This document shows, piece after piece, positions 1-41,962 of a DNA stretch of 64,000 bases; position 1 is the first letter of the stretch; every line of letters begins with the position of its first letter. The position numbers and the translations under genes were made by a program. Origin of the DNA: Escherichia coli (lineage in GTDB: Bacteria; Pseudomonadota; Gammaproteobacteria; Enterobacterales; Enterobacteriaceae); NCBI RefSeq assembly GCF_001677475.2, contig NZ_CP015229.1. The stretch is one strand, 5' to 3'. Below the pieces are notes generated by a model that was not told the DNA's origin, did no database searches, and saw only the letters and a program-made list of their open reading frames with translations.

Positions 1-829
1 TCAGCACGCCCGCAGTATCACGCAGGGTTTCACAGGTGATGATCATCAGCGCGGTGGTTTGTTTACGCGCGACAACCTGCTCCAGCATCTCCATCAGCAA
101 GGCTTTGTTCGGCAAATCCGACACCGGGAAGCGCATCGCGTTTTCGTTCTGTTCTTCATAATGGCGCTGCAGCAATTGCTGGTTGAGGTTGTAACTGCGC
201 ACCAGCATACCGATTTCATCGTCCTGATGCAGACGTGGTAATGCCAGTTGGTGACCAACAAGCTCCTGGGCAGGGATGGCGTTAAGTTCGCGAGCAATAT
301 TGCGTAACGGATGCAAAATCAGGCGGTTAATGCACCAGCTAATCGCCACCGTCAATATTAACGACAAAAGTAAGTAAATGGTCACTAACGTTGAGAGGGT
401 GCTCATCACGAACTTATACATGCGGAAGGAATCCGCCTGTAGCACCAGATAGGCAATTGGCTGCGGATTTGCCGGACGTTCCAGCGAGTAAACGCCCAGC
501 GAGATTTGAACCGGTAGCTCAAACAGGCGAGTAACCATTACCGGCACCGGACGCTCTGGAATAAAACTTTTACGCAGCGCCTGGAACTGGTTAGGCAGCA
601 CTACATCGGCACGGCTGACCACGCCTGCCGGTTTAATGCTGGCAAGAATAGCTTCCGCTTCGGGAATATCGCCTTTCAAAATAGCTGAAGATAAGGGTTC
701 GCGGACAGAGCGAGCAATGCTTTCCAGTTGCGTAGCCGTGTTATAGCGATTCTGCTGGACCAGATGGAACAGCAAAACGGTGCAAAAAATAAAAACGAAC
801 ACCAGGACAACGGCTGCCACCATTGCCAT
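1..829 (-). CDS. pdeK: c-di-GMP phosphodiesterase PdeK (YhjK), N-terminal part; gene continues beyond the window start
   Basis: Manual minus-strand translation from ATG at 829..827 gives [15 protein letters not shown]...[20 protein letters not shown], open to position 1. It has a membrane N-terminus and HAMP-like segment as in YhjK/HmsP. Missing from the ORF track because no stop lies inside the window. An upstream TTG at 862..860 (reading [14 protein letters not shown]) could be the true start. Confidence 0.75.
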
Positions 830-943
830 CTGCTTGATTGTTAACGAGCGACTTACGCGCAAATTGTCTCCCCCCGGAAATCCCAGATTGCCGCCCGAGT
901 ATACCCGATCGCAGCGGCATTAAGAGAGGCGCTATCTGAAAAC

Positions 944-3900
944 TTACCAGTCGGCGTAAGGTATCAGCGGCTGCGGCGGTAAATCCATGTCACCCTGCCA
1001 TCCGGCGGCGGAATAACGTACGTAGAGCAGGAAATGGCTGGGTGCGTAATCTTTCGCCTGCTGGATATCAATTGCCGTGCCGACAAACCAGTTGGAAGTA
1101 ACACGCCGTTCAAGTAATGCCCGCGCCGTGTAGCCGAAGCCCTGACTGCTGCCGCCATCGTTGGATTGCCGCGCAGCTTCTTCCTGCCAGTCGGTCGGGA
1201 TCAGATTCATCAGCGGATAACGCGGCATGGTTTTGGTGCGTGAATGCGACCACGAGCCAGACGCCCCCAGCTCCCACGACCAGTTTTCCGTGCGCTCCCG
1301 CCACATCACCGGTATGGCAAACGACAGGTATTCCTGCGGACTGTAGTAACCGCCCTGACCGAGTGAGTAGCCACTCAGATCTTTGTCGTAATGCCAGATC
1401 ATGTTGTTCAGGCCGATTGTGACGCGGCGATTGTTCTGGTTAATGACCTTATAGTAATAGCCCGTCATCCAGCGCACGCGCCAGTTATCTTCGACATTTT
1501 TACCGGTTAACTGGTCACCGCTAAGCGATGCCCAGACGCCGTTTGCTTCACCTTTATCGTAGCTCAGGCTTAGCCCCACGCCGTCGGCACGCACGCCACC
1601 CCATTTTTTCCCGGTATTGCTCGGGGAGTCTTTTTGCCCACCAAAGGCCAGCAAAGAACTGGAGATGGGCCGACGGTGGGCGTTAACGGTGTAACCCAGC
1701 GGCCCGATATCATCGCTGTAACTGATGCCGCCGACCACATCCACCACGTTGAAGCCCATCGGCGTGGTGCCGATATCCCAGCTCCAGACGTCATTTCGCC
1801 AGCCGACCGCCACGCTGGCACCGGAGTCCGACTGGCTGCGGTTGCCACTACAGTCCTGTAATGTACAGGTGCCCCAGTTGTCATCCCATTTGCCATCGGC
1901 ATTAGTGGAGAAACTGCCGACGTTCATATTGACGAAATCACTGCGAAAGAACATCCTCCCGTCAGAATACGGAGCATCCACCTGCAACATGGTAGTGTGC
2001 GCTTTCAGATCGGAGTAACCACCGGTGCCGCTCGAACCCCAGTAATCGTGCTCGAGGGTGACGTTAAGATCCTGCTGGCGATAGAGGTCCGCCGCATCGC
2101 TGCGCACGCCGCGTTTCAGCCAGTCATCTTTCTCGTCGTTACGGGTCAGTCGGGTAAAGGTGTCGTTATCCTGCGGACGCGTCGTAGTCACACCGGATGC
2201 GACCATGGCGTCTTTGTAGGTTTCCAGCGCCTGCTTTGGATCGCCCGCCTGCGCTTCAAACTTCGCACCGTCGCGCAGCACCATCGCGCTTTCCATCGAC
2301 GGTGGCTGAGATTTTGCCTGCGGGATCAACTTATTAAACGTCTGCTGCGCCGCTGCGGTATCGCCAAGCTGCGCCTGTGCCAGCGCCACGCGCCGCTGAG
2401 TGTTCAGCGACGCGTTATCGGTGGCAGGCAGTTTCGCCAGCTGGCTACGTGCTGCCGCTTTGTCACCGGCAGCAATATCCACTTCCGTCAGACCAAGAAT
2501 GGCATCGGCGTTAGTTGGCTCCCGCATCAGGACATTCTGATATGCAGCGCGAGCGGCGGTATAATCACGTCGTTGTTGCGCCCAGTCAGCCAGCGTGAGA
2601 TCAATACGCGTGGAAGGTGGTTGCTGGCGCAGCATCGCTTCCGCTTCAGCTTCTTTGCCGCTTTCTCGCAGGCGATTAGCGGTTTCCAGCACCTGATCGC
2701 TTTGCAGTCGATTAACCAGCTCCTGAATATTGCTGTTCCACTGCGCGCGCGGCAGGCTGTTGATATGCGCCAGAGCCGCTCTGTCCTGGTCATGACCAGA
2801 GAGGTACAGCCCGTAAGCGTAAACCTGCTCCGGGTCGTTCGGCTTCTGCTGCGCCAGATGGCGCATTAACGTATCGGCCTGGCTGCGTTGTCCGGCCTGC
2901 CAGAGATCCTGCGAAAGTCGGTAAGTAATCCATACACTGCCGGGGTCCAGCGCCAGTCGCTGGCGCTGAAGTGCTGCCGCCTGCGCCCATTTCCCCTGGT
3001 TTTCCAGTGCCTCTGCCTGCTGTGCCAGACGGTCGTTTTGCAGGCTGCGTTCGATATCATCAATGCTGCGCCGCTGGCTGGCAGAGAGCGAGGCGATAAA
3101 CGCTTCAGCTTTTTCTGGCGATTGCTGGCGGTATATATTCGCCAGCCCGCGCACGGCGTTAGTGTTGCCGCTGTCCATACGCAAGGTCTGCTGATAATAA
3201 CGTTCGGCGGCGGGATAATCTTTTCGTGCCATCGCCACATCGCCCAGCCCCAGCACTGCATAACTGTCGGTGTTATCGACATTACGTGCCTGCTGGAACA
3301 GGCGTTCTGCCCGGTCAGGATTATTGGCTTTCAGCGCAGCATCGCCCTGCTGGATCGCCAGCCAGTAGCGGTTTACTTTCAGGAGACTGTTCCATTTGTC
3401 GTTGTTGCTGCTGTGCGGGTCCAGTGCGAGGGCTTTTTCCAGATTCGCCACCGCATTAGCGCGATCGCCATTCTGGGAATACGCCTGCCCCAGCGCCCCC
3501 AGAGCCTCACTGTCTTTCGGGTTCGCCCGCACCGCCTGTTGTAGTTCGGGAATGGCTTTACCCACCATACCAGAGTCCACCGCCGCTAAACCTTGCGCAC
3601 GAGCGCGGAAAGCAGGGTCGGCCAGCTGTTTTTGCTGTTCTGCCAGTTGCGATTGTGCAGCCGCCACGCTATCGCCATCGCTAAAGATCGAAAGATATTT
3701 TTTCAGCGCCGACACACTGGCATCGCTGACGGGCATGTCTTTAATCTGCCCGTACCAGATTTTAGAGGCCCCCTCGCGCCCGGCGTTCGATTTCGCCATT
3801 TGTTCCAGGACGGCAAAGCCTTCGTCACGGCGATCGCTACTAAACAGCAATAGCGCCAGATTGTTTTGCAGGCCCGTGTTGCCCGGTGCATCCGCATTGA

Positions 3901-4417
3901 TGCGTTTTAACTGATTAATCGCTTCGCCACGGCGAGCCGGAATTTTCGCCACCGTACTCCAGTACTCGACAGCAATGTCACCTTCCGGCGGCGCACCGTT
4001 GAACAGTTTGTTGTAACTCGCCACTGCTTCTTCCGCATGACCGGTCGTCGCCTGCAATCTTGCCTGTTGCAGTGCCTGACGACCATCCGGCGTGGAAAGC
4101 AGCATCGTAGTCCGCGACGATTTATACGCATTTGAACTCGGCGCTAACTGCGACAGCCGATCGAGCTGTTTTTGCGCGCCATCAATATCGCCCTGACGTA
4201 ACAGAGAACGGAAACGGGCGGCAACGACGTCCGGGTTATTCGGATCAATAAGTTCCAGCCGATATAACGACTGTTGCACCAGATCTTCACGATGGGTCGC
4301 TTCGCCTAACCGAACTTGCTCCAGCAACTGTTGCTGAGCGGTTGGTGCTGCCTCGACCATCGGCATGACGGCCAGACCGAGGGAAAGCGTGAATATGTTT
4401 AGTGTGAATTTGCGCAT
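944..4417 (-). CDS. bcsC: cellulose synthase operon protein C (TPR-repeat periplasmic / outer-membrane export subunit)
   Basis: 1157-aa ORF with many TPR-like repeats and a C-terminal beta-barrel-like region; length and position downstream of bcsZ match BcsC. Confidence 0.95.
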
Positions 4418-5505
4418 TCCTGGCCCCAGTCAGGTAATAACTCACCTTTTGTCGAGAAGCGGAAACGGTGTTGATCCCAGCCTTGTCCAAACAGGGTCAG
4501 CACATAGTTGTAATAGGCATCGCTGCCGGGAAAGTTATCGGCCACGCGCTGGCGCTGAACGGCCTGCGCATCGCGGTTTTGTAAAAAGGGCAGCATGGCG
4601 GCAGAAAAACCGACCGGTCCTTTACCCTGCGCTTTCCCCGTAGCCACATCCACTTTTTCCGGCGGATAACCGTTTTTCTCGGTGAATGTCGCCATCGGTT
4701 TAAACCGGTTGAGCATCCGCGCTTTTTGCGGATCGCTGTCAGGCATCATGCCTACCCACATGTAAACGCGGATCGCGTCGTAGCTGCTGATCAATGTTTT
4801 TTCGGCTTTTAGCTGCCAGCCTTTGTCTTTCTCATAGCGCACCCAGTCTGGCGAAAAGCCTTTCGGGGCGGTTTCCAGCAATAAACGTTGATTGGTTTCG
4901 CGCAGCGTGGTCCACGGCGCGCCAAAGCGGGTGAAATACTGCGCCAGCGTCGGCGGCAGGTAGCTGGGGTTAAAACGCCAGCTGTTATCCTCTGCAAAAC
5001 CCACTTTGCCCGGTAACAACATGGAACCCAGCCCAGGCACCGTCACCACTTCCTCCCGCGCAATCCGTTTTAGCAACGCGCTGCCGATGTCGGTATAACG
5101 CTGCTCTTTCCACAAACGCCCCGCCTCCAGCAACGACCAGGCCATCCAGACATCACCATCGGAGGCCGAATTGCTGTCCAGCACTTCCCACTTACTGTTC
5201 TCTTTCTTGCCCCACAGCCAGGCGGGCAAACGTTCTTTTAAAGAACCCTGAGCGAGATTGTTCTGCGTCCAGTCGAGAATATTATCGAAAGCTGCACGGT
5301 CGTTAGCCGCCAGGGCAAAGAACATACCGTAACTTTGCCCTTCGGAGGTGGTGATTTTGCGCGCGTCGCTGGGGTCGATGACGCGCCCTTCCTGACTGAT
5401 GTAATCCTTTTTAAACTGCTCCCAGGCAGGCCAACTGCAGGCTGCCTGAACACTAAAGGCAGCCAACAGCAGCATCGTCACGAGTCCACTACGCAACACA
5501 TTCAT
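4399..5505 (-). CDS. bcsZ: endo-1,4-beta-glucanase (cellulase, GH8) BcsZ
   Basis: Starting at ATG 5505 gives 368 aa beginning MNVLRSG with a signal peptide; the track ORF begins two codons upstream at a TTG. Overlaps the bcsB stop and bcsC start as in the bcs operon. Confidence 0.93.
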
Positions 5506-5511
5506 CTTCAA

Positions 5512-7851
5512 TTACTCGTTATCCGGGTTAAGACGACGACGACTAATAATTCGCAGCAGACGCCACAGTACCCAGGCCAGCAGCACGACGCTGATTGCCG
5601 CCAGCACCGCCAGCAGAATCGGATGGTTTGCCAGCGCATACCACAAGCGCTCGAACCACGGCAGATGACCTACGTAATAAACGTCGCCAACACGTAGGCT
5701 GTTGATACCGGACTCGCGGATCACCGCGACCGAACCGAACATGGTGGCGCGTTTGCCGCTATCGTTCACCGCATCGTTAAGCATTTCATAACCGCGCGGG
5801 CTATCTGCCAGCAGCGCAATCACGCTGCGCTGGTCGTTATACGGCGACTGGAAGCCAATCACCGCTGCCATCGCACCTGAAGAGGTCAGCGTTGACTGAG
5901 TTTCTGCCGCGCGATCGCTCTCGTCCGGTACAATGCCGGGGAACGGGGTCTGGCGCATCGGCGTTTTCACCCAGCTTTCGGTCGCCTGCACCAACAGGTC
6001 GATCTGCTTGTCGTCTTTCAGTTTGTCCGGGATACCACCGACGATCATGATGTCGGCATCTTTCCCCTGAATAGTGCTGCCATCATCGGTCACCGTCAGG
6101 TTAATCGCCGGGAAGCCCGTCTGTGCGCCGATAAAACCAACAGTATTCAGCAACGTTTCCATCTGTGCTTCGTTAGGCGTTTTCGGCATCACGGTGATGG
6201 TTTGCGACAGATCCGCCATCCGGCTGAACGGGAAGCCCGCGTTAGCAAAGGCGCGTAGATCCGGCATCGGGATGAAGTGGTAATACTTCGAGAAGTCGAT
6301 GGTGGAATCGTCACCAATCACCACATGATTCTGCACCGGCTGGAAGGTAATACAGTTATCCACCGAACCGCCCGGCATCGGGTTCATATACTCAAAGTCG
6401 AAGCGCAGCTGGTTGGTCGCGCCCAGTTTCAGCGCCGGAATAGAGACATCCGTTTTGCCATCCAGCAAACCTTGTAATACCGGAATCCGCAGCAGCAGGC
6501 GGTTCGCCTCCTGTTTGCTGCTCAGGTTGAAAGATTGCAGGAACTGGTTATTCAGGCTGATATCCATCCGCGAACTGTCTTTCACCGGCGGCATGGTGTA
6601 GCGGTAATTAATATCCATATCAATGCCGGTACTGCGCATCAGGTAGAGATCCGGCGGCAGGTTTAGCGAAACGTTAATCGCTGCTGGCTCAAGACCGCTG
6701 GATTGTAACTGTTCTTCATAGGTTTTCAGTTCACCAAAGGTGACCGGACGATCGGTACGTACCCAGTTCGGCGCATCGTAAGGCTTACGCGGTAGCAGCG
6801 GTTTCACTTCATTCACTACCACGCTTTCACCACGGAACAGAATGTTACCCTGAGCGATACCTTTCGCTGCCTGCAACAGGTCTTTGTCGTCACGACCAAA
6901 CACCACCAGCAGTTTGACGTAAGGATTCTGCGGATGGTTGATCATCTCAATCACCGGGGCTTTTACCGCCGGATGATCGCGCAGGAAGTCCGGCCGTTTG
7001 TCGTTGGTTGCAAAGACAATGGCATTGCGATCCGGCAGTTGGTTATAGAGCACCGGGAAGTTCTGCCCACGCCAGCCAGAACGCGAACCAAACCACGAGG
7101 CGACAATGGCAGAGGCTTGTTGCAGCCCAACATCCGGCGCACCCGCAAAGACCATCGGCAAGGTGTTAGTACGGTTATCGCGCGGGTCAAAGAATGGCAC
7201 CGGGAAGTGTGACAGGTCATTCTTTACATTCAGGGTCTGATAGGTCAGATCCAGTCCACTGCTCCGCCCAACATCCAGCCAAAGCGTGGTGCTGGCCGGG
7301 TTTTCGCACACGTCCTGATAATGGCCGACAAACTCCAGCCGCACACGGTTGAAGTCGGTAATAAACAGTGGGTTAATGGGCATTTGCGCCAGTGTTTTTT
7401 TACCCAACTGTTCTTTGGTCACTGGCAGCACGCCCATCAGTTCATCATTGAGATAAACCTTTAACTGCGACTGGACAGGCAGTAACGATGGCGATGGCGT
7501 GTATTCGAGGTTGAGCATCGCCTTCGTCACCACTTCATCGCTGCGCATACCAAACTCAATGCTGCCGTTCGGGTTAATGCCACGTAGCACCATGCTGCCC
7601 GGCGGCGGCGCAATTTGCGCAAAGGTCAGCTTCACATCACGCGAAGGACCGTTCTGCGCCACGACTGGCGCATCAGCGCCCTGCACGCCCGGCATCACTT
7701 GCCCCACCTGCGGATTTTGTTCCGTCTGGGCGGCTACAGCTGGCTCAGCATTGATCAGTGGTTGCGTTGCTGGCGTCGCCTGCGTCATGAAAGAGGGGAA
7801 CGCACTCATCCCCATAGCCACTGCACAAATCCAGAATAGTTTTCTTTTCAT
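5512..7851 (-). CDS. bcsB: cellulose synthase regulatory / periplasmic subunit BcsB
   Basis: 779 aa from ATG at 7851 (MKRKLFWICAV, signal peptide) with a C-terminal TM anchor; sits between bcsA and bcsZ. Confidence 0.93.
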   Translation of the reverse strand: MKRKLFWICAVAMGMSAFPSFMTQATPATQPLINAEPAVAAQTEQNPQVGQVMPGVQGADAPVVAQNGPSRDVKLTFAQIAPPPGSMVLRGINPNGSIEFGMRSDEVVTKAMLNLEYTPSPSLLPVQSQLKVYLNDELMGVLPVTKEQLGKKTLAQMPINPLFITDFNRVRLEFVGHYQDVCENPASTTLWLDVGRSSGLDLTYQTLNVKNDLSHFPVPFFDPRDNRTNTLPMVFAGAPDVGLQQASAIVASWFGSRSGWRGQNFPVLYNQLPDRNAIVFATNDKRPDFLRDHPAVKAPVIEMINHPQNPYVKLLVVFGRDDKDLLQAAKGIAQGNILFRGESVVVNEVKPLLPRKPYDAPNWVRTDRPVTFGELKTYEEQLQSSGLEPAAINVSLNLPPDLYLMRSTGIDMDINYRYTMPPVKDSSRMDISLNNQFLQSFNLSSKQEANRLLLRIPVLQGLLDGKTDVSIPALKLGATNQLRFDFEYMNPMPGGSVDNCITFQPVQNHVVIGDDSTIDFSKYYHFIPMPDLRAFANAGFPFSRMADLSQTITVMPKTPNEAQMETLLNTVGFIGAQTGFPAINLTVTDDGSTIQGKDADIMIVGGIPDKLKDDKQIDLLVQATESWVKTPMRQTPFPGIVPDESDRAAETQSTLTSSGAMAAVIGFQSPYNDQRSVIALLADSPRGYEMLNDAVNDSGKRATMFGSVAVIRESGINSLRVGDVYYVGHLPWFERLWYALANHPILLAVLAAISVVLLAWVLWRLLRIISRRRLNPDNE

Positions 7852-7861
7852 CGCGTTATCA

Positions 7862-10480
7862 TCATTGTTGAGCCAGAGCCTGATCCGATGGTTGTGCCGT
7901 TTCGCTCCGCTCCGGGCGGCGCGGAATAAACGATACAACCCAGGAAACCAGAGAAGTCAGCACACGGAATATGCCCTTCACCGAAGAAGGCGCAAACTCC
8001 GCCAGATGGCGGTAGCCACGGAAGCCGAGCTTCAGAATATCCAGCAGACTTTCCAGCGGCTTATCTTCCGGGTAGCTGTCCTGCCAGAGCGCCCATGTAT
8101 CCGCACGGGCAAACGTACACTGCACAAAATCGATATGTTGCTGAGTGGTGAGCGGCATTAATTTCAGCCCAACTTCATTACCCATCACGCGCGCCACCTG
8201 GGTCGGGAAGACATATTCCTGCTGACCGCGTTTAAGCAACAGATTCACTTTCTGCCCTTCCAGAATCTGTGCCTGACCGTTGATCTTGATCCCCAAACCA
8301 CCGTCGGAGAAATCCTGAACGGTACACGAGAAGAGATGACCATCTTCGCGGGCAATTGCCGCGGGCATCGTCATCTCCACGCGGTGCGAACGACGTACCT
8401 GTTTGCTTTCTACCGATACCGCAACTGCGCCGCCAAGAACAATCAGGTTGTAGAATACCCACACCATACTGACGACCACGGTGAGCATCTCGGTTGGCGG
8501 ACCATAGAAGTAGCGCCAGATGCCTACCGCAACGCCCACCAGGTTGAGCAGAACAAGGAAGATGTAGGGCCGCGAGATCACCCAGTCGACGTACTCTTCT
8601 TCCACCAGTCCACCTTTGGCGGTGACGTTAAATTTGCCTTTGTGCGGGTTAATCAGCGCCACCAGCGTCGGTGGTGCGATATACCACGCCAGCACCGTTT
8701 CGTAGATTTCACTCCAGAAAGAGTGGCGATATTTGCCCTGGATCTTGGAGTTGGTCAGGCTAGCATGGATCATATGCGGCAGCACGAACAGGGCAATCAT
8801 CAACGCTGGCGCATAGATGATGTAGGCATGAAGCAGCAGGAACGCCAGCGGCGCAGTCAGGAAGATCAGTCGTGGAATGCCCGACAAGAAGTGGAACATG
8901 GCGTTGACGTAACATAGCCGCTGAGCAAACTTCAGCCCTTTACCGGTGAGCGGGTTATCGAGACGAAAGATTTGCACCATCCCGCGCGCCCAGCGAATAC
9001 GCTGACCAATATGCGCCGACAGACTTTCGGTCGCCAGCCCCGCCGCCTGCGGAATACGCATATATGCAGAGGTGTAGCCACGACGGTGCAGGCGCAAAGA
9101 GGTATGCGCATCTTCAGTCACAGTTTCGACAGCAATACCGCCAATTTCATCCAGCGGCTTACGGCGAATCACCGCACAGGAACCGCAGAAGAAAGTGGCG
9201 TCCCACATATCGTTGCCATCCTGCACCAGACCATAGAACAGCGTGCCTTCGTTCGGTGTTTTACGAAAACGCCCCAGGTTGCGTTCAAACGGGTCCGGTG
9301 AGAAGAAGTGGTGCGGCGTCTGCATCATCGCCAGCTGTTTTTCTTTCAGGAACCAGCCCATGGTCATTTGCAGGAACGATCGCGTTGGTACGTGGTCGCA
9401 GTCGAAAATCGACACGAACTCGCCTTTGGCATATTTCAGCGCATTGTTGATGTTGCCCGCTTTCGCATGTTCATGAGTGGTGCGGGCGATATATTTCACC
9501 CCCACGTTTTGCGCAAACTGGCGAAACTCTTCCCTGCCGCCGTCATCAAGGATCCAGATGTTCAGCTTGTCTTTCGGCCAGTCGATACCCAGCGAAGCGT
9601 AAATGGTATTTTTCACCACGTTGAGATCTTCGTTGTAAGTCGGGACAAAGATATCCACCGACGGCCACAGCGACATATCTTTCGGCAATGGCACCGGCTG
9701 ACGATTCAGCGGCCATACGACCTGGAAGTAGCCGAGCACCAGCACAATCCACGCGTACGTTTCAGCGAAGAGCAGAATAAGCCCGCACACCAGGCTGACC
9801 GGATCGTCCCAGTTCAACGTAGAGGTGTAGCGCCACCAGATATAACGGCAAGAAACGGTCAGCGACAGCACAATCAGCATCAACGCCGAGAAGCGCCCCG
9901 GCATCCGCCGTACGATCAGCGCTACACCCCACAGCAGCATCAGGAAGATAAACTGCGCCAGCGGGTTAAATGGCTGGGTGACGCAGATTAATGCCAGAAT
10001 CAGCGAGAAGGTGACGATGATACCGAGGATCAACCGCCGCGCCCCGGCACTCAAATGACCGAGTTCTTTTTTCTCATCAAGATGCTGTGTTTTATGGCTA
10101 ACGCGCTCAGGCAGCTCGTTCATCCATTGATGGTAACGTCCACGAATATTTTGCAGACCTGAAAATGCCCGCCTGCGCGGTTTCGGCGTTTCTTTGCGCG
10201 ATGCACCGATCAGTAACCAGCATGTTTGAATGAGATAACGGACCGGGTCCAGCGGACGCGGACGCGAGGCGTTGATATGCGGATACAGGTTTTTATGTTC
10301 TGCGCGAATACGCTGCCAGCGCGGGTGCTCCAGCGGAATAAAAATCCAGGCCAGGATCATCCAGAAACAGCCGAGCGTCGCGCTGAAAGCCGACGCACCG
10401 TGGCGACGATAATCGCGATAACGCCCGATAAGCCGCGCGTTGACCGGCGGGATAAGCAACCACCGGGTCAGGATACTCAT
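7862..10480 (-). CDS. bcsA: cellulose synthase catalytic subunit BcsA (GT2 with C-terminal PilZ domain)
   Basis: 872 aa from ATG 10480 (MSILTRWLLIPP); contains the glycosyltransferase family 2 region (DDG..., QRIRWARG) and a PilZ-like C-terminus. Start overlaps the bcsQ stop (ATGA). Confidence 0.95.
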   Translation of the reverse strand: MSILTRWLLIPPVNARLIGRYRDYRRHGASAFSATLGCFWMILAWIFIPLEHPRWQRIRAEHKNLYPHINASRPRPLDPVRYLIQTCWLLIGASRKETPKPRRRAFSGLQNIRGRYHQWMNELPERVSHKTQHLDEKKELGHLSAGARRLILGIIVTFSLILALICVTQPFNPLAQFIFLMLLWGVALIVRRMPGRFSALMLIVLSLTVSCRYIWWRYTSTLNWDDPVSLVCGLILLFAETYAWIVLVLGYFQVVWPLNRQPVPLPKDMSLWPSVDIFVPTYNEDLNVVKNTIYASLGIDWPKDKLNIWILDDGGREEFRQFAQNVGVKYIARTTHEHAKAGNINNALKYAKGEFVSIFDCDHVPTRSFLQMTMGWFLKEKQLAMMQTPHHFFSPDPFERNLGRFRKTPNEGTLFYGLVQDGNDMWDATFFCGSCAVIRRKPLDEIGGIAVETVTEDAHTSLRLHRRGYTSAYMRIPQAAGLATESLSAHIGQRIRWARGMVQIFRLDNPLTGKGLKFAQRLCYVNAMFHFLSGIPRLIFLTAPLAFLLLHAYIIYAPALMIALFVLPHMIHASLTNSKIQGKYRHSFWSEIYETVLAWYIAPPTLVALINPHKGKFNVTAKGGLVEEEYVDWVISRPYIFLVLLNLVGVAVGIWRYFYGPPTEMLTVVVSMVWVFYNLIVLGGAVAVSVESKQVRRSHRVEMTMPAAIAREDGHLFSCTVQDFSDGGLGIKINGQAQILEGQKVNLLLKRGQQEYVFPTQVARVMGNEVGLKLMPLTTQQHIDFVQCTFARADTWALWQDSYPEDKPLESLLDILKLGFRGYRHLAEFAPSSVKGIFRVLTSLVSWVVSFIPRRPERSETAQPSDQALAQQ

Positions 10481-11229
10481 GATGCACTCCCGACTGGCGT
10501 TTTCAGCCCGGAATAGTTCAACAGGCACCAGTTAGCCAGCGTCAGTATCTCTTCCGCCGCCAGCGCATCACTGCGATATTCACCGACTGGTTGCTTAGCC
10601 GCCAGGCATTCAGCCATCGCTTCATCACGATGAATGAGCATCGGCAGTAATCGGCGCTGGCTTTGCAACCAAAGCTGGTAAATATCGTCCTGAACCTGAC
10701 TGCCGATACGGAAGTCATTAATCAAAATATGCGCGCCATCCGGCAGCGCCTGCTGATGCAGCCGGATATGGCAGTTGGCATCCACATTGACGATTGCCAG
10801 CGAGTGATCGCACAAACTCAGCAGCTGGTGGGTTATCTGCGAGGCATCACGCGGTAAGTCGATTAAAATCCACTGGTAACGCCCGCTGGCTTTTAGTTGC
10901 TGTAAGCCGGAGCAAATATCGCTCAGCCGGGTTTGCCAGTGCTGTGGATTTTCTTGTTCTTCAATGGATAACTGACCAAAAGGCAGCAAATCGAGCTGCG
11001 AGGTATAGCGCAACCCAGCGTCACGCCAGTCCTGGCCATCCAGCATAGCTCTGGCCCAGCCCTGACGGTGGGTAAAATCAACGTTAAATGACAGGCGCAA
11101 CAAGTTGTCCGGGCAGGCATCGACCACCAGGACATTTTCTCCCAACATTTGTAATGACCAGGCTAATGCGGCGGTGATGGTTGTTGTCCCCACGCCTCCC
11201 CGCACCCCCTGCAATCCCAGTACGGCCAT
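10477..11229 (-). CDS. bcsQ: BcsQ (YhjQ), ParA/MinD-like ATPase of the cellulose secretion system; intact reading frame
   Basis: 250-aa ORF MAVLGLQGVRGGVGTTT with a deviant Walker A motif. No premature stop, unlike the K-12 allele as I recall it. Confidence 0.9.
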   Translation of the reverse strand: MAVLGLQGVRGGVGTTTITAALAWSLQMLGENVLVVDACPDNLLRLSFNVDFTHRQGWARAMLDGQDWRDAGLRYTSQLDLLPFGQLSIEEQENPQHWQTRLSDICSGLQQLKASGRYQWILIDLPRDASQITHQLLSLCDHSLAIVNVDANCHIRLHQQALPDGAHILINDFRIGSQVQDDIYQLWLQSQRRLLPMLIHRDEAMAECLAAKQPVGEYRSDALAAEEILTLANWCLLNYSGLKTPVGSAS

Positions 11230-11240
11230 TCACCAATCCC

Positions 11241-11429
11241 CTACTTTTGTTGCGCAAACTCTGCCAGCAACGGCCAGCGTTTTAATGCCGCGGCCAACTG
11301 TTCGCGTTGGGAAATATCGGCATAATCAATATCAGGCAGTGAAAATGCCTGCTTTAACGCCAAAATATCATTCTGGAAGATATAGCCTATCGCGGGATCA
11401 GGCAGAGTATCTGGTTCATTGTTATTCAT
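11241..11429 (-). CDS. bcsR: BcsR (YhjR), small cellulose-synthesis regulatory protein
   Basis: 62 aa from ATG 11429 (MNNNEPDTLPDPAIGY...AEFAQQK), immediately upstream of bcsQ. Confidence 0.8.
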   Translation of the reverse strand: MNNNEPDTLPDPAIGYIFQNDILALKQAFSLPDIDYADISQREQLAAALKRWPLLAEFAQQK

Positions 11430-11471
11430 TTGCTTGATCCCTATGAAATAACCGTACCGTTCATGAGACAA

Positions 11472-11700
11472 TTCTAACCGTGAGCATTTCGCCGGTTTAT
11501 TGTTTACGGCGAGACGGGAATTTGCTCACTTTTTGACTTTCCGTTACGCAACAAAAAAAGTTAAAAACGAAAAGACTAAAATCACACGTCTTGTGACCTG
11601 CTAAATTGATTCACATGCTAAATCTGATAAGTTTTAATTTCAATGGTAGGTTTATTTCTTAGCTTTCGCTAGTAAACTGATAATCAGACAAAATGATGAC
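11472..11700. promoter_or_regulatory. divergent bcsRQABZC / bcsEFG promoter region
   Basis: 229-bp AT-rich intergenic region between divergently oriented bcsR and bcsE. No individual promoter elements mapped. Confidence 0.5.
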
Positions 11701-13272
11701 ATGAGGGACATTGTGGACCCTGTATTCTCTATCGGTATCTCATCATTATGGGATGAGCTGCGACATATGCCAGCAGGCGGCGTCTGGTGGTTTAACGTCG
11801 ATCGCCATGAAGATGCTATCAGTCTGGCGAATCAAACAATTGCATCCCAGGCTGAAACCGCACACGTCGCGGTCATTAGCATGGACAGCGATCCGGCGAA
11901 AATCTTTCAATTAGATGATTCTCAAGGGCCGGAAAAAATAAAATTATTTTCAATGCTAAATCATGAAAAAGGTCTATACTATTTGGCCCGTGATTTGCAG
12001 TGTTCTATTGAACCCCATAATTACCTTTTTATTCTTGTTTGCGCAAATAACGCATGGCAAAACATTCCTGCCGAGCGGCTTCGCTCATGGTTGGATAAAA
12101 TGAATAAATGGAGCAGGTTAAACCATTGTTCGCTTTTGGTAATTAATCCCGGAAATAATAACGATAAACAATTTTCATTGTTGCTTGAGGAATACCGTTC
12201 ACTTTTTGGTCTTGCCAGTTTGCGTTTTCAGGGTGACCAACATTTGCTGGATATTGCCTTCTGGTGCAACGAAAAAGGGGTTAGCGCCCGTCAGCAGCTT
12301 AGCGTTCAGCAACAAAATGGTATCTGGACATTAGTTCAAAGCGAAGAGGCGGAGATCCAACCACGCAGCGACGAAAAACGCATTCTGAGTAATGTTGCTG
12401 TACTGGAAGGTGCGCCGCCGCTATCGGAACACTGGCAACTGTTCAACAATAACGAAGTTCTGTTCAATGAAGCCCGTACCGCTCAGGCGGCGACGGTGGT
12501 CTTTTCTTTACAGCAAAATGCGCAAATCGAGCCACTGGCCCGCAGCATTCATACTCTGCGTCGCCAGCGCGGTAGTGCGATGAAAATCCTCGTACGGGAA
12601 AATACCGCAAGCCTGCGCGCCACCGATGAACGTTTGTTATTGGCCTGCGGTGCAAATATGGTTATCCCGTGGAATGCGCCACTCTCCCGTTGTCTGACGA
12701 TGATCGAAAGCGTGCAAGGGCAGAAGTTTAGTCGCTATGTGCCGGAAGATATCACTACCTTGCTGTCAATGACCCAGCCGCTCAAACTGCGTGGTTTCCA
12801 GAAGTGGGATGTGTTCTGTAATGCCGTCAACAACATGATGAATAACCCTCTATTACCTGCCCACGGTAAAGGCGTTCTGGTTGCCCTACGTCCGGTACCG
12901 GGTATCCGCGTTGAACAAGCCCTGACGCTGTGTCGCCCTAACCGTACCGGCGATATCATGACCATTGGCGGTAATCGGCTGGTGCTGTTTCTCTCATTCT
13001 GTCGGATTAACGATCTGGATACCGCGTTGAATCATATTTTCCCATTGCCTACTGGCGACATTTTCTCAAACCGTATGGTCTGGTTTGAAGATGATCAAAT
13101 CAGTGCCGAGCTGGTGCAGATGCGCCTGCTTGCCCCAGAACAATGGGGCATGCCGCTGCCTTTAACGCAAAATTCTAAACCGGTCATTAATGCCGAGCAC
13201 GATGGTCGCCACTGGCGACGAATACCAGAACCCATGCGACTGTTAGATGATGCTGTGGAGCGCTCATCATGA
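11701..13272 (+). CDS. bcsE: BcsE (YhjS), c-di-GMP-binding cellulose secretion protein
   Basis: 523-aa ORF, first gene of the divergent bcsEFG unit; length matches BcsE. Confidence 0.9.
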
Positions 13273-13460
13273 TGACCATCAGCGATATCATTGAAATTAT
13301 TGTCGTTTGCGCACTGATATTTTTCCCGCTGGGCTATCTGGCGCGGCACTCTTTGCGACGCATTCGCGACACCTTACGTTTGTTCTTTGCTAAACCTCGT
13401 TATGTTAAACCGGCCGGGACGTTACGCCGCACGGAAAAAGCCAGGGCAACCAAAAAATGA
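13269..13460 (+). CDS. bcsF: BcsF (YhjT), small membrane protein
   Basis: 63-aa ORF with a single hydrophobic helix ([19 protein letters not shown]); start overlaps bcsE stop and stop overlaps bcsG start. Confidence 0.8.
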
Positions 13461-15136
13461 CTCAATTTACGCAAAATACCGCCATGCCTTCTTCCCTCTG
13501 GCAATACTGGCGCGGCCTTTCCGGCTGGAACTTCTATTTTCTGGTTAAGTTCGGCCTGTTGTGGGCAGGATATCTTAACTTCCATCCGCTCCTCAATCTG
13601 GTGTTTGCCGCGTTTCTGCTGATGCCCATTCCGCGCTACAGCCTGCATCGCTTACGCCACTGGATTGCCCTGCCGATCGGCTTTGCTTTGTTCTGGCATG
13701 ACACCTGGTTGCCTGGCCCGGAAAGCATAATGAGCCAGGGTTCGCAGGTGGCGGGGTTCAGTACCGATTATTTAATCGACCTTGTCACACGCTTTATTAA
13801 CTGGCAGATGATTGGGGCCATTTTTGTTTTATTAGTGGCCTGGTTATTCCTGTCACAATGGATTCGCATTACCGTTTTTGTGGTTGCCATTCTGCTATGG
13901 CTGAACGTACTTACCCTGGCGGGACCAAGTTTCTCCTTGTGGCCAGCCGGTCAACCGACGACCACTGTAACAACGACGGGTGGTAACGCAGCGGCAACCG
14001 TTGCGGCGACGGGTGGCGCACCGGTAGTGGGTGATATGCCCGCACAAACTGCACCGCCAACAACGGCGAACCTTAACGCCTGGCTGAATAATTTCTATAA
14101 CGCGGAGGCGAAACGTAAATCGACCTTCCCGTCTTCGCTGCCCGCTGATGCTCAGCCATTTGAACTACTGGTGATTAATATCTGTTCGCTTTCCTGGTCG
14201 GATATTGAAGCCGCCGGGTTGATGTCGCATCCGCTGTGGTCACATTTCGATATTGAGTTCAAGAACTTTAACTCCGCCACCTCCTACAGTGGCCCGGCGG
14301 CGATCCGTTTACTGCGCGCCAGCTGCGGGCAGACTTCGCATACTAATCTGTATCAACCGGCAAATAATGACTGCTATCTGTTTGATAACCTGTCGAAACT
14401 GGGCTTTACCCAGCACCTGATGATGGGACATAACGGCCAGTTCGGCGGTTTTTTGAAAGAAGTTCGCGAAAATGGCGGCATGCAGAGCGAATTGATGGAT
14501 CAAACAAATCTGCCGGTTATTTTGCTGGGCTTTGATGGTTCGCCGGTTTATGACGATACCGCCGTGCTTAACCGCTGGCTGGACGTTACCGAAAAAGATA
14601 AAAACAGCCGTAGTGCCACGTTCTATAACACGCTTCCACTGCATGACGGCAACCATTATCCGGGCGTCAGCAAAACAGCGGATTACAAAGCGCGGGCGCA
14701 GAAATTCTTTGATGAACTGGACGCCTTCTTTACTGAACTGGAGAAATCGGGTCGTAAAGTGATGGTGGTCGTGGTGCCGGAACACGGTGGCGCGCTGAAG
14801 GGCGACAGAATGCAGGTATCTGGCCTACGTGATATCCCTAGCCCGTCTATCACAGACGTCCCCGTTGGGGTGAAATTCTTCGGCATGAAGGCACCACATC
14901 AGGGGGCACCGATTGTCATCGACCAACCGAGCAGCTTCCTGGCTATCTCCGATCTAGTGGTTCGCGTTCTTGATGGCAAGATTTTCTCCGAAGACAATGT
15001 TGACTGGAAAAAACTCACCAGTGGGTTACCACAAACAGCACCGGTCTCCGAGAACTCAAATGCAGTAGTTATTCAATACCAGGATAAACCGTACGTTCGC
15101 CTGAACGGCGGCGACTGGGTGCCTTACCCGCAATAA
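13457..15136 (+). CDS. bcsG: BcsG (YhjU), phosphoethanolamine transferase for cellulose modification
   Basis: 559-aa ORF with multiple N-terminal TM helices and a C-terminal periplasmic domain; matches BcsG in length and position. Confidence 0.9.
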
Positions 15137-15140
15137 GAAC

Positions 15141-15172
15141 GAAAAAGGCCGCAGAGTTTCACCCCTGCGGCC
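15141..15172 (-). terminator. rho-independent terminator of ldr copy 1; the same hairpin follows the bcsG stop on the + strand
   Basis: Perfect 8-bp stem GGCCGCAG/CTGCGGCC (15147..15172) followed on the minus strand by a T-run (A-run 15142..15146 on plus). Confidence 0.6.
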
Positions 15173-15222
15173 TGGTCCGGGCGCAAATTGCCATTACGGC
15201 AGCCTGACGCCCGCATGACACG

Positions 15223-15330
15223 TTACTTCCGCTTGTTCAGCCAGTTCACGATCATACTGGCAAGAATGCCAGCAATGACCGGAGCCGCTAAATCATGCCA
15301 GAAGGCCATGCCCAGCTCTGCGAGCGTCAT
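15223..15330 (-). CDS. ldrD: Ldr-family type I toxin peptide (35 aa), copy 1
   Basis: ATG at 15330..15328, stop TAA at 15225..15223; by 483-bp periodicity with copy 2 it encodes an MTLAELGMAFWHDLAAPVIAGILASMIVNWLNKRK-type peptide, a close match to LdrD as I remember it. Below the 60-aa track cutoff. K-12 has one ldrD at this position. Confidence 0.8.
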   Translation of the reverse strand: MTLAELGMAFWHDLAAPVIAGILASMIVNWLNKRK

Positions 15331-15629
15331 ATAGCCGCCTGTGTTGTAATGACAACGTTTCGCGGCTATTCTTGAGTGGTCTAGGTTCAAGATTAGCCCC
15401 CGTTATGTTGTCAGGTGCATACCTGCAACGTGCGGGGGTTTTCTCTCTCCAGCAACCAATGCCACCAGGGATAAAGCCCCCGCAACATTGCGCCTCACCG
15501 GAACCCTTCCGGCTTGCCGCTGATTCTACGACTGTTTTTCTGTTCCGGAATCCGTCACGTCTTCACTCTGTGCTGCGCATTCCGCAGAATATTATCCGCG
15601 TGCAATCGTTGCATTTTTCTTACGAAAAA

Positions 15630-15655
15630 GGCCGCAGAGTTTCACCCCTGCGGCC
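15630..15655 (-). terminator. rho-independent terminator of ldr copy 2
   Basis: Second copy of the GGCCGCAG...CTGCGGCC hairpin, preceded on plus by AAAAA (15625..15629). Confidence 0.55.
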
Positions 15656-15705
15656 TGGTCCGGGCGCAAATTGCCATTACGGCAGCCTGACGCCCGCATG
15701 ACACG

Positions 15706-15813
15706 TTACTTCCGCTTGTTCAGCCAGTTCACGATCATACTGGCAAGAATGCCAGCAATGACCGGAGCCGCTAAATCATGCCAGAAGGCCATGCCCAGTT
15801 CTGCGAGCGTCAT
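15706..15813 (-). CDS. Ldr-family type I toxin peptide (35 aa), copy 2
   Basis: C-terminal 35 residues of track ORF 15706..15981; ATG verified at 15813..15811 and stop at 15708..15706. Confidence 0.8.
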   Translation of the reverse strand: MTLAELGMAFWHDLAAPVIAGILASMIVNWLNKRK

Positions 15814-16288
15814 ATAGCCGCCTGTGTTGTAATGACAACGTTTCGCGGCTATTCTTGAGTTGTTCAGGTTCAAGAATGGCCCCCGTGATGTTGTCAGGTG
15901 CATACCTGCAACGTGCGGGGGTTTTCTCTCTCCAGCAACCAATGCCACCAGGGATAAAGCCCCCGCAACATTGCGCCTCACCGGAACCCTTCCGGCTTGC
16001 CGCTGATTTTACGATTGCTTTTTACTGTCAGCACCCGGCAATCTTCCTCATTGCGTGATGCCTTCCAGCTTAATTTCTTAATTTGCAATAGTTGCAGTTC
16101 ATATCCGGGCTGACTCCAGACTGGTAGTGAAATGCGCAATTTTGTAGAATTGCGCCTCCTCGCGACCTCCCCAGTGAATCTGTTGCCTCATTTTTTACAT
16201 ACTGCGTATTCGACTTCTCCACCTGTTGCGCAAGAGAAACTGGGTTTATTCATTTTTGCGAGGCCGACTTCTTTCTGGACAGGACTTT

Positions 16289-17560
16289 ATGCAGCACAAC
16301 ACACTACCGAAACACGATCAGAAAATGCCGTTTACACGCTACGACTTCGGCTGGGTTTTATTATGTATAGGCATGGCGATTGGTGCCGGAACCGTGCTGA
16401 TGCCAGTACAAATTGGCTTGAAGGGAATTTGGGTATTTATTACCGCAGCGATCATTGCTTATCCTGCCACCTGGGTAGTGCAGGACATTTATTTAAAAAC
16501 CCTTTCTGAAAGCGATTCCTGTAATGACTACACCGATATTATCAGTCATTACCTGGGGAAGAACTGGGGAATTTTCCTCGGGGTTATCTACTTTTTGATG
16601 ATTATCCACGGGATTTTTATCTACTCTCTCTCCGTGGTTTTCGACAGCGCCTCGTACCTGAAAACCTTCGGTTTAACCGATGCCGATCTTTCACAATCTC
16701 TACTTTATAAAGTCGCTATTTTCGCCGTACTGGTGGCGATTGCGTCTGGTGGTGAACGATTACTGTTTAAGATTTCCGGGCCAATGGTGGTGGTCAAAGT
16801 AGGGATTATTGTCGTGTTCGGTTTTGCGATGATCCCGCACTGGAATTTCGCCAATATAACCGCCTTCCCGCAAGCCTCCGTCTTTTTCCGCGATGTCCTG
16901 CTTACCATTCCATTTTGCTTCTTTTCTGCAGTATTTATTCAGGTACTTAACCCAATGAATATTGCCTATCGTAAACGGGAAGCGGATAAAGTACTGGCAA
17001 CCCGGCTCGCGCTGCGTACCCACCGAATTAGTTATATCACGCTCATCGCGGTGATCCTGTTTTTTGCCTTTTCGTTTACCTTCTCAATTAGCCACGAAGA
17101 AGCCGTTTCTGCCTTTGAACAAAATATCTCGGCACTGGCACTGGCCGCGCAGGTGATCCCTGGGCATATCATTCATATCACCTCTACGGTGCTGAATATC
17201 TTTGCCGTACTGACCGCATTCTTTGGCATTTATCTCGGTTTCCACGAGGCTATTAAAGGCATTATTCTCAATCTGTTAAGCCGAATTATTGATACCAAGA
17301 AAATTAACTCACGCATGCTGACTCTGGCGATCTGCGCTTTTATCGTCATTACGTTGACGATTTGGGTTTCGTTTCGTGTATCGGTGCTGGTGTTCTTTCA
17401 GTTGGGAAGCCCGTTATATGGCATTGTGTCGTGCCTCATTCCATTTTTCCTGATCTATAAAGTCGCACAACTGGAAAAACTTCGCGGGTTTAAAGCCTGG
17501 CTGATTCTGCTGTACGGCATTTTGTTATGCTTGTCGCCACTGTTGAAGCTGATTGAGTAA
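16289..17560 (+). CDS. yhjV: inner-membrane transporter YhjV (HAAAP / amino-acid permease-like family)
   Basis: 423 aa from ATG 16289 ([12 protein letters not shown]), preceded by AGGAC; polytopic membrane protein matching YhjV in length and position. Confidence 0.9.
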
Positions 17561-20496: not shown

Positions 20497-21516
20497 TTAC
20501 TTCTTATGACGAATACGCGGGTTCACCACGCCGTACAGCAGATCGACCAGCAGATTGACGAGGATAATCATCGTCGCCACCAGCAATACGCCACCCTGCA
20601 CTACCGGATAATCGCGGCGTTGCAGTGCGTCAATCAACCAGCGCCCCAGACCAGGCCACGAGAAGATGGTTTCGGTCAGAATCGCCCCCGCCAGCAATGT
20701 TCCCACCTGAAGGCCGATAACGGTCACTACCGGCAGCATCGCGTTACGCAGCGCGTGGACGATAATCACCCTAAGGCGGGTCAACCCTTTGGCGCGCGCG
20801 GTGCGGATATAATCTTCACCCAGCACTTCAAGCATCGAGGAGCGCGTCATACGCACAATCACCGCCAGCGGTATCGTACCCAGCACAATGGCGGGCAGGA
20901 TCATATGCGCGACGGCATCGATAAAGTTACCGTCTTCACCCCAGATGGCGGTGTCGATTAGCATAAAACCGGTTAACGGATTGGAATCATCGAGGAACAC
21001 CATGTCGCTCACGCGACCGGAGACGGGCGTCAGGTTCCAGTGCACCGAAACCAGCATGATCAGCATCATGCCCCACCAGAAGATCGGCATCGAGTAGCCG
21101 GTCAGCGCCAGACCAACCGCCGTGTGATCGAAAATGGAACCGCGTTTAACCGCAGCCAGCACACCGACCGGAATACCGACCGCAGTCGCAAAAATCATCG
21201 CGCAGACACCAAGCTCCAGCGTGGCCTGAAAGCGCGGCACGAACTCTTCCCAAACCGGGATGCGGCTTTTCATCGAAATGCCTAAATCGCCGTGCATTAC
21301 GCTCCAAATGTAATTGAGATACTGCTGCCACATCGGTTTATCTAAGCCGAGTTCAGCCAGCAGCTGCGCGTGACGCTCTGGGGAGATCCCACGTTCGCCC
21401 GCCATGATCATCACCGGATCGCCGGGGATCATGTGGACAAAGGCAAAGGTGAGAAGGGTAATACCGATAAACGTGGGGATGACGAGTCCCAAACGTCGGA
21501 GAATAAACTGCAACAT
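20497..21516 (-). CDS. dppB: dipeptide ABC transporter permease DppB
   Basis: 339 aa from ATG verified at 21516..21514 (MLQFILRRLGL); the track ORF carries a 21-codon upstream extension. Confidence 0.95.
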   Translation of the reverse strand: MLQFILRRLGLVIPTFIGITLLTFAFVHMIPGDPVMIMAGERGISPERHAQLLAELGLDKPMWQQYLNYIWSVMHGDLGISMKSRIPVWEEFVPRFQATLELGVCAMIFATAVGIPVGVLAAVKRGSIFDHTAVGLALTGYSMPIFWWGMMLIMLVSVHWNLTPVSGRVSDMVFLDDSNPLTGFMLIDTAIWGEDGNFIDAVAHMILPAIVLGTIPLAVIVRMTRSSMLEVLGEDYIRTARAKGLTRLRVIIVHALRNAMLPVVTVIGLQVGTLLAGAILTETIFSWPGLGRWLIDALQRRDYPVVQGGVLLVATMIILVNLLVDLLYGVVNPRIRHKK

Positions 21517-21622
21517 AACCCGGATTCTCTGTAGTGACCCGCAGCCTGGAACTGCGTGTCTGTATTGCTCACAAATCAATTCCCGCCCGTGCCGGACAGG
21601 GAATGAAGTATTGCTGCCGGAT

Positions 21623-21648
21623 GGCGCTGCACGCAGAGATGCAGCGCC
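21623..21648 (-). promoter_or_regulatory. intercistronic stem-loop in the dppA-dppB spacer
   Basis: Perfect 9-bp palindrome GGCGCTGCA..TGCAGCGCC, plus a second hairpin TTCCC..GGGAA nearby, in the 150-bp dppA-dppB gap. Confidence 0.4.
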
Positions 21649-21666
21649 ACCGGGTATGGCTTTTAA

Positions 21667-33368: not shown

Positions 33369-33596
33369 GGCAGTATTCCTGCAGTAATAAAAAGGAAAAA
33401 TCTCTGCCGACAACCATAACGAAGTGCACTTTATGCCTGGGGAAAAACGGCATGAAATGCCATCAGAACGGAATGAAATGCCTTAGTTCAGGAATGAATG
33501 ACGCGACAATTATTCACCAAATTTATTATTTGGTAAGTTAGCACCCACTATCGCCACAACTATTGTTATTCAATGGTTTCAATTGTGATTGTTACG

Positions 33597-41809: not shown

Positions 41810-41962
41810 TTACTCTTTTAAATTGCAGGCTAAAAATGCCGCCAGCTCATAACTCCCCTGTTTAATATGCAATTCACACAGTGAATCTCTTATCATCCAG
41901 GTGAAAAATAAAAGCGTGAAACAAATCACTATTAAAGAAAGCAATCTATATTTCTGCGGCAT
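41810..41962 (-). CDS. hokA: Hok-family type I toxin (50 aa)
   Basis: ATG verified at 41962 (MPQKYRLLSLIVICFTLLFFTWMIRDSLCELHIKQGSYELAAFLACNLKE); a hairpin GGCGGGAAGTTATTCCCGCC follows the stop. Confidence 0.85.
   Translation of the reverse strand: MPQKYRLLSLIVICFTLLFFTWMIRDSLCELHIKQGSYELAAFLACNLKE

Follow-up and report, generated by a model that had tools for sequence, protein, structure and literature searches.

The question raised by this locus is whether the Escherichia coli strain from which it comes carries a complete set of cellulose biosynthesis (bcs) genes or, like K-12, an inactivated one. The window analysed here is a stretch of DNA of 64,000 nucleotides, and its ORF map places two divergent operons at positions 944-15136, bcsRQABZC on the minus strand and bcsEFG on the plus strand. 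This interval very probably represents the standard E. coli-type cellulose secretion locus, with all nine genes in their intact, wild-type form. Because the bcs genes are intact and codon 6 of bcsQ is TTG, the locus would also confer the genetic capacity to produce phosphoethanolamine-cellulose. The features of the locus, the scores of their products against family profiles and their amino acid differences from K-12 are compiled in the table.

Table. Features of the bcs locus and its surroundings in the window, with NCBIfam profile scores and differences from K-12
Feature	Position	Strand	Description	Profile: score in bits (cut-off)	Amino acid differences from K-12
pdeK (yhjK/hmsP), 5' part	1..862	-	c-di-GMP phosphodiesterase gene adjoining bcsC, cut by window edge		
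bcsC	944..4417	-	outer-membrane TPR/beta-barrel export subunit, 1157 aa	NF008520: 2199.8 (858), full length	8
bcsZ	4399..5505	-	periplasmic GH8 endoglucanase, 368 aa	NF008305: 595.9 (299)	3
bcsB	5512..7851	-	periplasmic co-catalytic subunit, 779 aa	NF008325: 1386 (922)	8
bcsA	7862..10480	-	GT2 cellulose synthase with C-terminal PilZ domain, 872 aa	NF008558: 1794 (992)	none
bcsQ	10477..11229	-	SIMIBI/MinD-like ATPase, 250 aa	NF007460: 542.9 (399)	codon 6 only
bcsR (yhjR)	11241..11429	-	62 aa, first in bcsRQABZC operon	NF040717: 75.8 (46)	1 (V23L)
bcsR-bcsE intergenic region	11430..11700	.	divergent control region, 271 bp		
bcsE	11701..13272	+	c-di-GMP-binding GIL-domain protein, 523 aa	NF011619: 1188.8 (929), full length	3
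bcsF	13269..13460	+	membrane protein, 63 aa	TIGR03493: 116.4 (56)	none
bcsG	13457..15136	+	phosphoethanolamine transferase, 559 aa	TIGR03368: 818.6 (410)	3 (L58I, E489D, T511S)

Each of the nine genes begins with ATG, closes with a terminal stop codon, is free of internal stops and has exactly the length of its K-12 counterpart. Their coding sequences align to K-12 MG1655 without gaps, and the sole indel relative to K-12 over the 14.2 kb is a single base pair in the bcsR-bcsE intergenic region. All nine products exceed the NCBIfam equivalog cut-offs with essentially the whole profile covered, and a re-reading of each gene against K-12 for a frameshift or stop found none. The first-pass annotation had described the nine genes as uninterrupted, with bcsE, bcsF and bcsG intact, a description that these stop-free, ungapped alignments and full-length profile matches bear out. 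Neighboring genes are tightly packed: the 3' end of bcsZ overlaps the start of bcsC by 19 nt, the bcsQ stop and the bcsA start share an ATGA, and bcsF overlaps both bcsE and bcsG by 4 nt. The order R-Q-A-B-Z-C / E-F-G is colinear with the loci of K-12, EC974, USMARC-49610 and E2348/69. For bcsZ, bcsB, bcsA and bcsR, the ORF list gives longer N-termini initiated at TTG or GTG codons; the starts adopted here are the ATGs homologous to those of the annotated K-12 and RefSeq genes. The long antisense ORFs in bcsC and bcsB (e.g. 1997-2869 on the plus strand, 290 aa) were rejected as fortuitous reading frames within GC-rich genes, and none of the reference records carries an annotation there.

The most informative position in the cluster is codon 6 of bcsQ (11212-11214). 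Alignment of codons 1-12 shows TTG (Leu) here and TAG in K-12 MG1655, whose record annotates bcsQ as a pseudogene; the early stop ascribed to the K-12 allele is thereby confirmed, in agreement with published work (PMC5944007, PMC7397504). Codon 6 is the only amino acid-level difference from the K-12 reading frame, and the N-terminus of the window protein contains both the P-loop and the sense codon: MAVLGLQGVRGGVGTTT. BcsQ had also been called a full 250-aa ParA/MinD-like protein; it is indeed full length, and its similarity to the ParA/MinD type is weak. In K-12, the TAG codon may act through loss of BcsQ function or through a polar effect on downstream genes, and changing it to TTG rendered the K-12 derivative AR3110 cellulose-proficient again (PMC7397504, PMC5944007). 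The K-12 defect is absent from the window, as codon 6 is TTG here and in nearly all non-K-12 E. coli. When a 55-mer centered on the bcsQ SNP was compared with 5426 complete E. coli genomes, at least 4898 carried the TTG allele and 349 had TAG. With at least 90% of complete genomes possessing it, an intact bcsQ is normal for the species and does not set this strain apart. The question of whether the TAG allele also occurs in the ST10 complex was prompted by an earlier report (PMC10881479). Two partly overlapping listings of the TAG matches, one best-ranked and one evenly spread, gave 120 rows out of 349 genomes; all of these looked like K-12-type laboratory strains, with genomes of 4.5-4.7 Mb, and no wild ST10-complex isolate was among them.

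The residues expected of an active secretion system are also in place. BcsA contains QRIRW at 493, RRSHR at 696 and DFSDGG at 723, which correspond to the catalytic QxxRW motif and to the RxxxR and DxSxxG motifs through which PilZ domains bind c-di-GMP. BcsE contains RTGD at residues 415-418, fitting the RxGD motif for c-di-GMP binding. In BcsG, C243, Y277, S278, H396, E442 and H443 are all found; Ser278 is the established catalytic residue and Cys243, Glu442 and His443 form the metal site, with Tyr277 and His396 in addition. Based on established work on the Bcs system, BcsA and BcsB would polymerize UDP-glucose to beta-1,4-glucan and move the glucan across the inner membrane, a synthesis that would be triggered by c-di-GMP on the BcsA PilZ domain. 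BcsR, BcsQ and BcsE would form a cytosolic vestibule required for assembly and activity. The glucan would be trimmed in the periplasm by BcsZ and exported through the outer membrane via BcsC, while BcsG, under the control of BcsE and BcsF, would add phosphoethanolamine to the nascent chain.

Across the cluster, nucleotide identity to K-12 is 98.4%, and the codon differences comprise 197 synonymous and 27 non-synonymous changes, codon 6 included. The asymmetry is complete in bcsA, which carries 49 nucleotide differences (48 synonymous and 0 non-synonymous codons) and encodes a protein identical to that of K-12. BcsF is likewise unchanged, with bcsF 100% identical at the nucleotide level. These ratios, 197 to 27 overall and 48 to 0 in bcsA, indicate that the bcs genes have been under purifying selection in this lineage. 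BcsC A285V, K316N, N520H and T631M and BcsB I604V and I756V are absent from the three comparison strains, and of the four strains in this comparison the window alone has BcsE D104E and S491N and BcsG T511S. The BcsR substitution is common to strain EC974. The exact BcsC protein corresponds to GenBank ANO91480.1, and the exact BcsB protein occurs on 143 public contigs. A six-strain alignment of the 14.2 kb shows 97 sites private to the window, and the best match to the cluster among 5426 complete RefSeq genomes reaches 98.5% identity. It is possible, and proposed here tentatively, that the strain belongs to a rarely sampled E. coli lineage in which the whole bcs cluster is under strong purifying selection; this would fit an important role of cellulose in an environmental or commensal lifestyle, as opposed to invasive clones, in which loss has occurred convergently. 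The lpf fimbrial operon nearby, for its part, is similar to versions that carry the labels E. marmotae and E. whittamii.

The region between the two operons differs from K-12 by three substitutions in addition to the 1-bp deletion. A consensus-type promoter-like site lies within it at 11643-11615 on the minus strand; however, the scan for promoter and terminator consensus sequences returned counts no higher than those in shuffled sequence and was therefore discarded as evidence. On the other flank, the pdeK fragment is open over 287 codons to the window edge and occupies a position homologous to that of K-12 pdeK, whose product interacts with cellulose synthase (PMC7397504). A mobile bcs cluster was also considered and rejected: the full-length matches among plasmid records are either multi-megabase entries filed as plasmids, that is, mislabelled chromosomes, or assembly fragments, and thus provide no evidence of mobility.

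The first-pass annotation predicted that the strain makes phosphoethanolamine-cellulose; what the genotype predicts is a capacity for it, and its expression depends on CsgD, DgcC (AdrA) and RpoS, encoded by genes outside the 64-kb window. Production requires intact reading frames but is not guaranteed by them, since BL21 and H10407, although free of nonsense mutations in bcs, do not bind calcofluor (PMC5944007). The cluster might accordingly be intact but silent, yielding little or no cellulose under standard conditions, owing either to regulatory differences elsewhere (csgD, rpoS, dgcC or an excess of phosphodiesterase activity) or to the BcsB and BcsC substitutions specific to this lineage. 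The calcofluor-negativity of BL21 and H10407 has been ascribed to amino acid changes in BcsB, BcsC and BcsQ (PMC5944007), and such a reading would be compatible with the four BcsC and two BcsB substitutions missing from the three comparison strains, as well as with the location of the regulatory genes. Nevertheless, it is considered rather unlikely, as the 197:27 ratio argues for proteins that have been kept functional, BcsA, BcsQ and BcsF are the same proteins as in the cellulose-proficient AR3110 background, all tested motifs are intact and the substitutions are mostly conservative.

Far less probable is that only unmodified cellulose is made owing to a BcsEFG module that is non-functional despite its open frames. 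The private changes in BcsE and BcsG lend this little support; they are conservative and distant from the key residues. The reading is further opposed by a BcsF identical to that of K-12 and by the presence of the BcsE RTGD and of the residues for catalysis and zinc binding in BcsG. That the apparent intactness is itself an artefact, reflecting an overlooked frameshift or stop or a decaying pseudogene cluster, can practically be dismissed: although decay is common in the species, as illustrated by close relatives such as USMARC-49610 (bcsG Q328*) and an O157:H7 strain (bcsA frameshift), the ungapped, stop-free alignment of the nine coding sequences and their full-length profile matches reject it.

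The locus is therefore best read as an intact, wild-type one. It is the ordinary complete cellulose cluster of most wild E. coli, which is already known, and has little importance beyond the annotation of this strain, where it denotes genetic competence to make the cellulose of the biofilm matrix. Loss-of-function bcs mutations have been linked to enhanced virulence in invasive clones (PMC10881479), which, given the intact bcs genes, places the strain on the ancestral, non-attenuated side. With regard to K-12, the comparison identifies the laboratory strain, rather than the source strain, as the exception.

Among known systems, the bcs locus of K-12 MG1655 / W3110 (b3530-b3538) has the same nine genes in the same order, on the same strands and with the same lengths and overlaps; it differs from the window in the bcsQ TAG codon, which is accompanied by a cellulose-negative phenotype. 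Another related system is AR3110, a W3110 derivative in which bcsQ codon 6 was repaired from TAG to TTG and which makes phosphoethanolamine-cellulose (PMC7397504). AR3110 and the window share the codon 6 allele and identical BcsQ, BcsA and BcsF proteins, whereas they belong to different lineages, with a nucleotide divergence of ~1.6% and a few substitutions in BcsC, BcsB, BcsZ, BcsE, BcsG and BcsR. The wild strains EC974, USMARC-49610, E2348/69 and 1094 show the architecture of the window with bcsQ intact, and most of the amino acid differences between the window and K-12 are common to the wild strains compared. Unlike the window, USMARC-49610 carries its own bcsG lesion, and the O157:H7 strain with the bcsA frameshift, PV15-279, was compared separately. 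At the structural level, the window BcsQ matches the BcsQ chains of the BcsRQ structures 6yar, 6yb3 and 6ybu over residues 1-250 (E=3e-168) and is near-identical to them, and BcsG is near-identical over residues 1-559 to the BcsG of structures 6pcz, 9b8v (aligned over its residues 1-559) and 9fmv, with differences only at positions 58, 489 and 511, all three of them the conservative substitutions that also separate it from K-12.

Codon 6 is the sole protein-level difference between the bcsQ frames of the window and K-12 MG1655. Aligned over codons 1-12, the window gene begins ATG GCC GTA CTG GGA TTG CAG GGG and the K-12 gene, which the MG1655 record annotates as a pseudogene, ATG GCC GTA CTG GGA TAG CAG GGG. 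The early K-12 stop mentioned in the first-pass annotation is thus genuine, as this alignment and two published accounts agree (PMC5944007, PMC7397504). One of these gives the K-12 SNP as TTG/TAG (17T>A) and credits Serra et al. with restoring cellulose production by repairing it (PMC5944007). AR3110, a W3110 derivative in which bcsQ codon 6 was changed from TAG to TTG, is made cellulose-proficient by that change (PMC7397504), and the window carries the same proficient allele. It has been suggested that the nonsense codon could either compromise BcsQ itself or exert polar effects on adjacent genes (PMC5944007), with which the ATGA overlap at the bcsQ/bcsA junction would agree. The window product is the full-length, 250-aa ParA/MinD-like protein that had been claimed: its score of 542.9 bits against NF007460 (NCBIfam) exceeds the cut-off of 399, ParA/MinD-type profiles match it more weakly, and its match to BcsQ chains in the PDB spans residues 1-250.

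Allele frequencies were obtained by megablast of 55-mers with the SNP at the centre against 5426 complete E. coli genomes. Because megablast requires an exact 28-base word and a mismatch at the centre splits the 55-mer into two stretches of 27 bases, the other allele gives no match. The TTG 55-mer matched in 4898/5426 genomes and the TAG 55-mer in 349; among the TAG matches listed (the 60 best-ranked and 60 evenly spread of the 349, partly overlapping) were MG1655, DH5alpha, DH1, J53, C600, HB101, MC4100, BW25113, XL1-Blue, TG1 and similar 4.5-4.7 Mb genomes. The intact allele is therefore the norm for the species and the stop codon a trait of the K-12 lineage, which removes most of the interest of the finding.

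The remainder of the cluster is equally undisturbed. Six collinear ORFs on the minus strand and three on the plus strand lie between 944 and 15136 (ORF list of window 1-17000), and window 900-15200 has megablast matches in 5424 of the 5426 complete genomes, beneath which bcsC, bcsZ, bcsB, bcsA, bcsQ, bcsR, bcsE, bcsF and bcsG are annotated. Gene coordinates were projected from K-12 MG1655, and the annotated loci of K-12 MG1655, EC974 and USMARC-49610 were used. Compared with K-12, all nine genes have an ATG start, a terminal stop codon, the K-12 length and zero internal stops; the 271-bp bcsR-bcsE intergenic region has a single-base deletion, and the bcsE, bcsF and bcsG frames are perfect. With starts, stops, lengths and frames all in order, the extent of the cluster and the nine uninterrupted genes stand as first annotated. 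ATGA overlaps also occur at the bcsE/bcsF and bcsF/bcsG junctions and a 19-nt overlap at bcsZ/bcsC, arrangements typical of translational coupling.

Features of the window
Feature	Position	Strand	Remark
pdeK	1-862		first 287 codons, open to window edge
bcsC	944-4417	-	mapped from K-12
bcsZ	4399-5505	-	mapped from K-12
bcsB	5512-7851	-	mapped from K-12
bcsA	7862-10480	-	mapped from K-12
bcsQ	10477-11229	-	mapped from K-12
bcsR	11241-11429	-	mapped from K-12
bcsE	11701-13272	+	mapped from K-12
bcsF	13269-13460	+	mapped from K-12
bcsG	13457-15136	+	mapped from K-12
Ldr/Rdl	15223-15927		two tandem units
rdlD matches	15379-15444, 15862-15927		
dppB-dppA gap	21654-21657		K-12 ~150 bp longer
eptB	24354-26078		
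lpfABCDE-like operon	26334-31830	-	five genes
yhjX	32166-33413		
hok/sok-type locus	41960-42111		Rfam sok, 120 bits
relative of K-12 dppB-dppA element	60923-61043		overlaps Rfam ES036 sRNA match
AraC-family regulator gene	61793-62608	-	
MFS_2 sugar-transporter gene	62681 onwards	+	runs off window end

In the established model for this family, DgcC makes c-di-GMP locally, which activates BcsA via its PilZ domain. The glucan is polymerised and translocated by BcsA together with BcsB, and the regulatory module in the cytosol consists of BcsR, BcsQ and BcsE. BcsZ works in the periplasm and BcsC in the outer membrane, and BcsE and BcsF control the addition of phosphoethanolamine by BcsG. All nine products exceed curated NCBIfam equivalog cut-offs over nearly the entire profile length, which, with the K-12 lengths and lack of internal stops, upholds the earlier description of bcsE, bcsF and bcsG as intact. 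BcsA and BcsF are identical to K-12 in amino acid sequence. Residues with established functional roles are present in BcsA (QRIRW at 493, PilZ RRSHR at 696, DFSDGG at 723), BcsE (RTGD at 415) and BcsG (C243, Y277, S278, H396, E442, H443), and the only positions at which BcsG departs from the chain in PDB 9b8v are 58, 489 and 511. Relative to K-12, the cluster has 197 codons with synonymous and 27 with non-synonymous changes, as would be expected under purifying selection; the bcsA counts (48 and 0) are in line with the remark that SNPs in bcsA never alter the protein (PMC5944007). The Bcs mechanism is summarised in PMC7397504, which also describes an interaction of the phosphodiesterase PdeK with cellulose synthase; pdeK adjoins the cluster.

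On this gene content the strain very likely has the genetic capacity for phosphoethanolamine-cellulose. Capacity is not production, and silence under standard assay conditions, albeit improbable, deserves some weight: csgD, dgcC and rpoS lie outside the window; BL21 and H10407 carry bcs without a nonsense mutation and still do not bind calcofluor (PMC5944007); and BcsC (A285V, K316N, N520H, T631M) and BcsB (I604V, I756V) have substitutions absent from K-12, EC974 and USMARC-49610.

Among 5426 complete RefSeq E. coli genomes, identity over the cluster peaks at 98.5%, with differences evenly distributed. In a six-way alignment over the cluster, identity to the window was 98.5% for EC974 and USMARC-49610, 98.4% for K-12, 98.35% for O157:H7 and 97.5% for E2348/69 (phylogroup B2), and 97 sites in the 14.2 kb were private to the window. 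The window lies inside E. coli diversity on a separate branch, from a lineage that seems poorly represented. Its BcsC, BcsB and LpfD-like proteins exactly equal GenBank ANO91480.1, ANO91482.1 and ANO91501.1 (Escherichia coli).

Several neighbouring features were also recorded. The lpfABCDE-like chaperone-usher fimbrial operon, flanked by eptB and yhjX, has no K-12 counterpart, and the top match of window 24000-34000 among complete E. coli genomes reaches only ~87%. LpfA, LpfB, LpfC and LpfE exceed NCBIfam cut-offs; at 310 bits, the LpfD-like adhesin falls short of its 412-bit cut-off, and its 90%-identity cluster takes in proteins labelled E. marmotae, E. whittamii and unclassified Escherichia. 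In O157:H7 strain PV15-279, lpfC has an internal stop. Directly downstream of bcsG, the two units of Ldr toxin/Rdl antisense RNA (type I toxin-antitoxin) encode identical Ldr peptides, with extended minus-strand ORFs ending at 15223 and 15706; K-12 has one copy at this site and other strains 3-4. The hok/sok-type locus is uninterrupted, and IS150 is inserted at the homologous K-12 site (hokA/mokA/sokA). The extra K-12 dppB-dppA element is probably a REP/BIME-type repeat, whose relative in the window has 88% identity and opposite orientation. Synteny with K-12 stops shortly after ysaA (window 61791-64000), the AraC-family and MFS_2 genes occupying the plaR-yiaK... position. Several PLSDB 'plasmid' records with the whole bcs cluster are mislabelled chromosomes, being 4.8-4.9 Mb long; one 61-kb and one 25-kb record with most of it look like assembly fragments.

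Natural strains commonly lose bcs function. Loss-of-function bcs mutations occur in 55.3% of ST95 genomes (PMC10881479); bcsG has an internal stop (Q328*) in USMARC-49610, the top-ranked cluster match (14059-15738 of that locus), and bcsA is frameshifted in PV15-279 (20761-23380 of that locus). Because such loss is common, an intact cluster is somewhat informative, yet it represents the ancestral state. The first-pass reading is correct with two caveats, that intact bcsQ is the species default and that capacity differs from production. Every defining sequence feature of E. coli-type bcs that was tested is present, with no departure from published loci in architecture, gene content or proteins, and the cluster, judged by sequence, belongs to this well-described and already known system.
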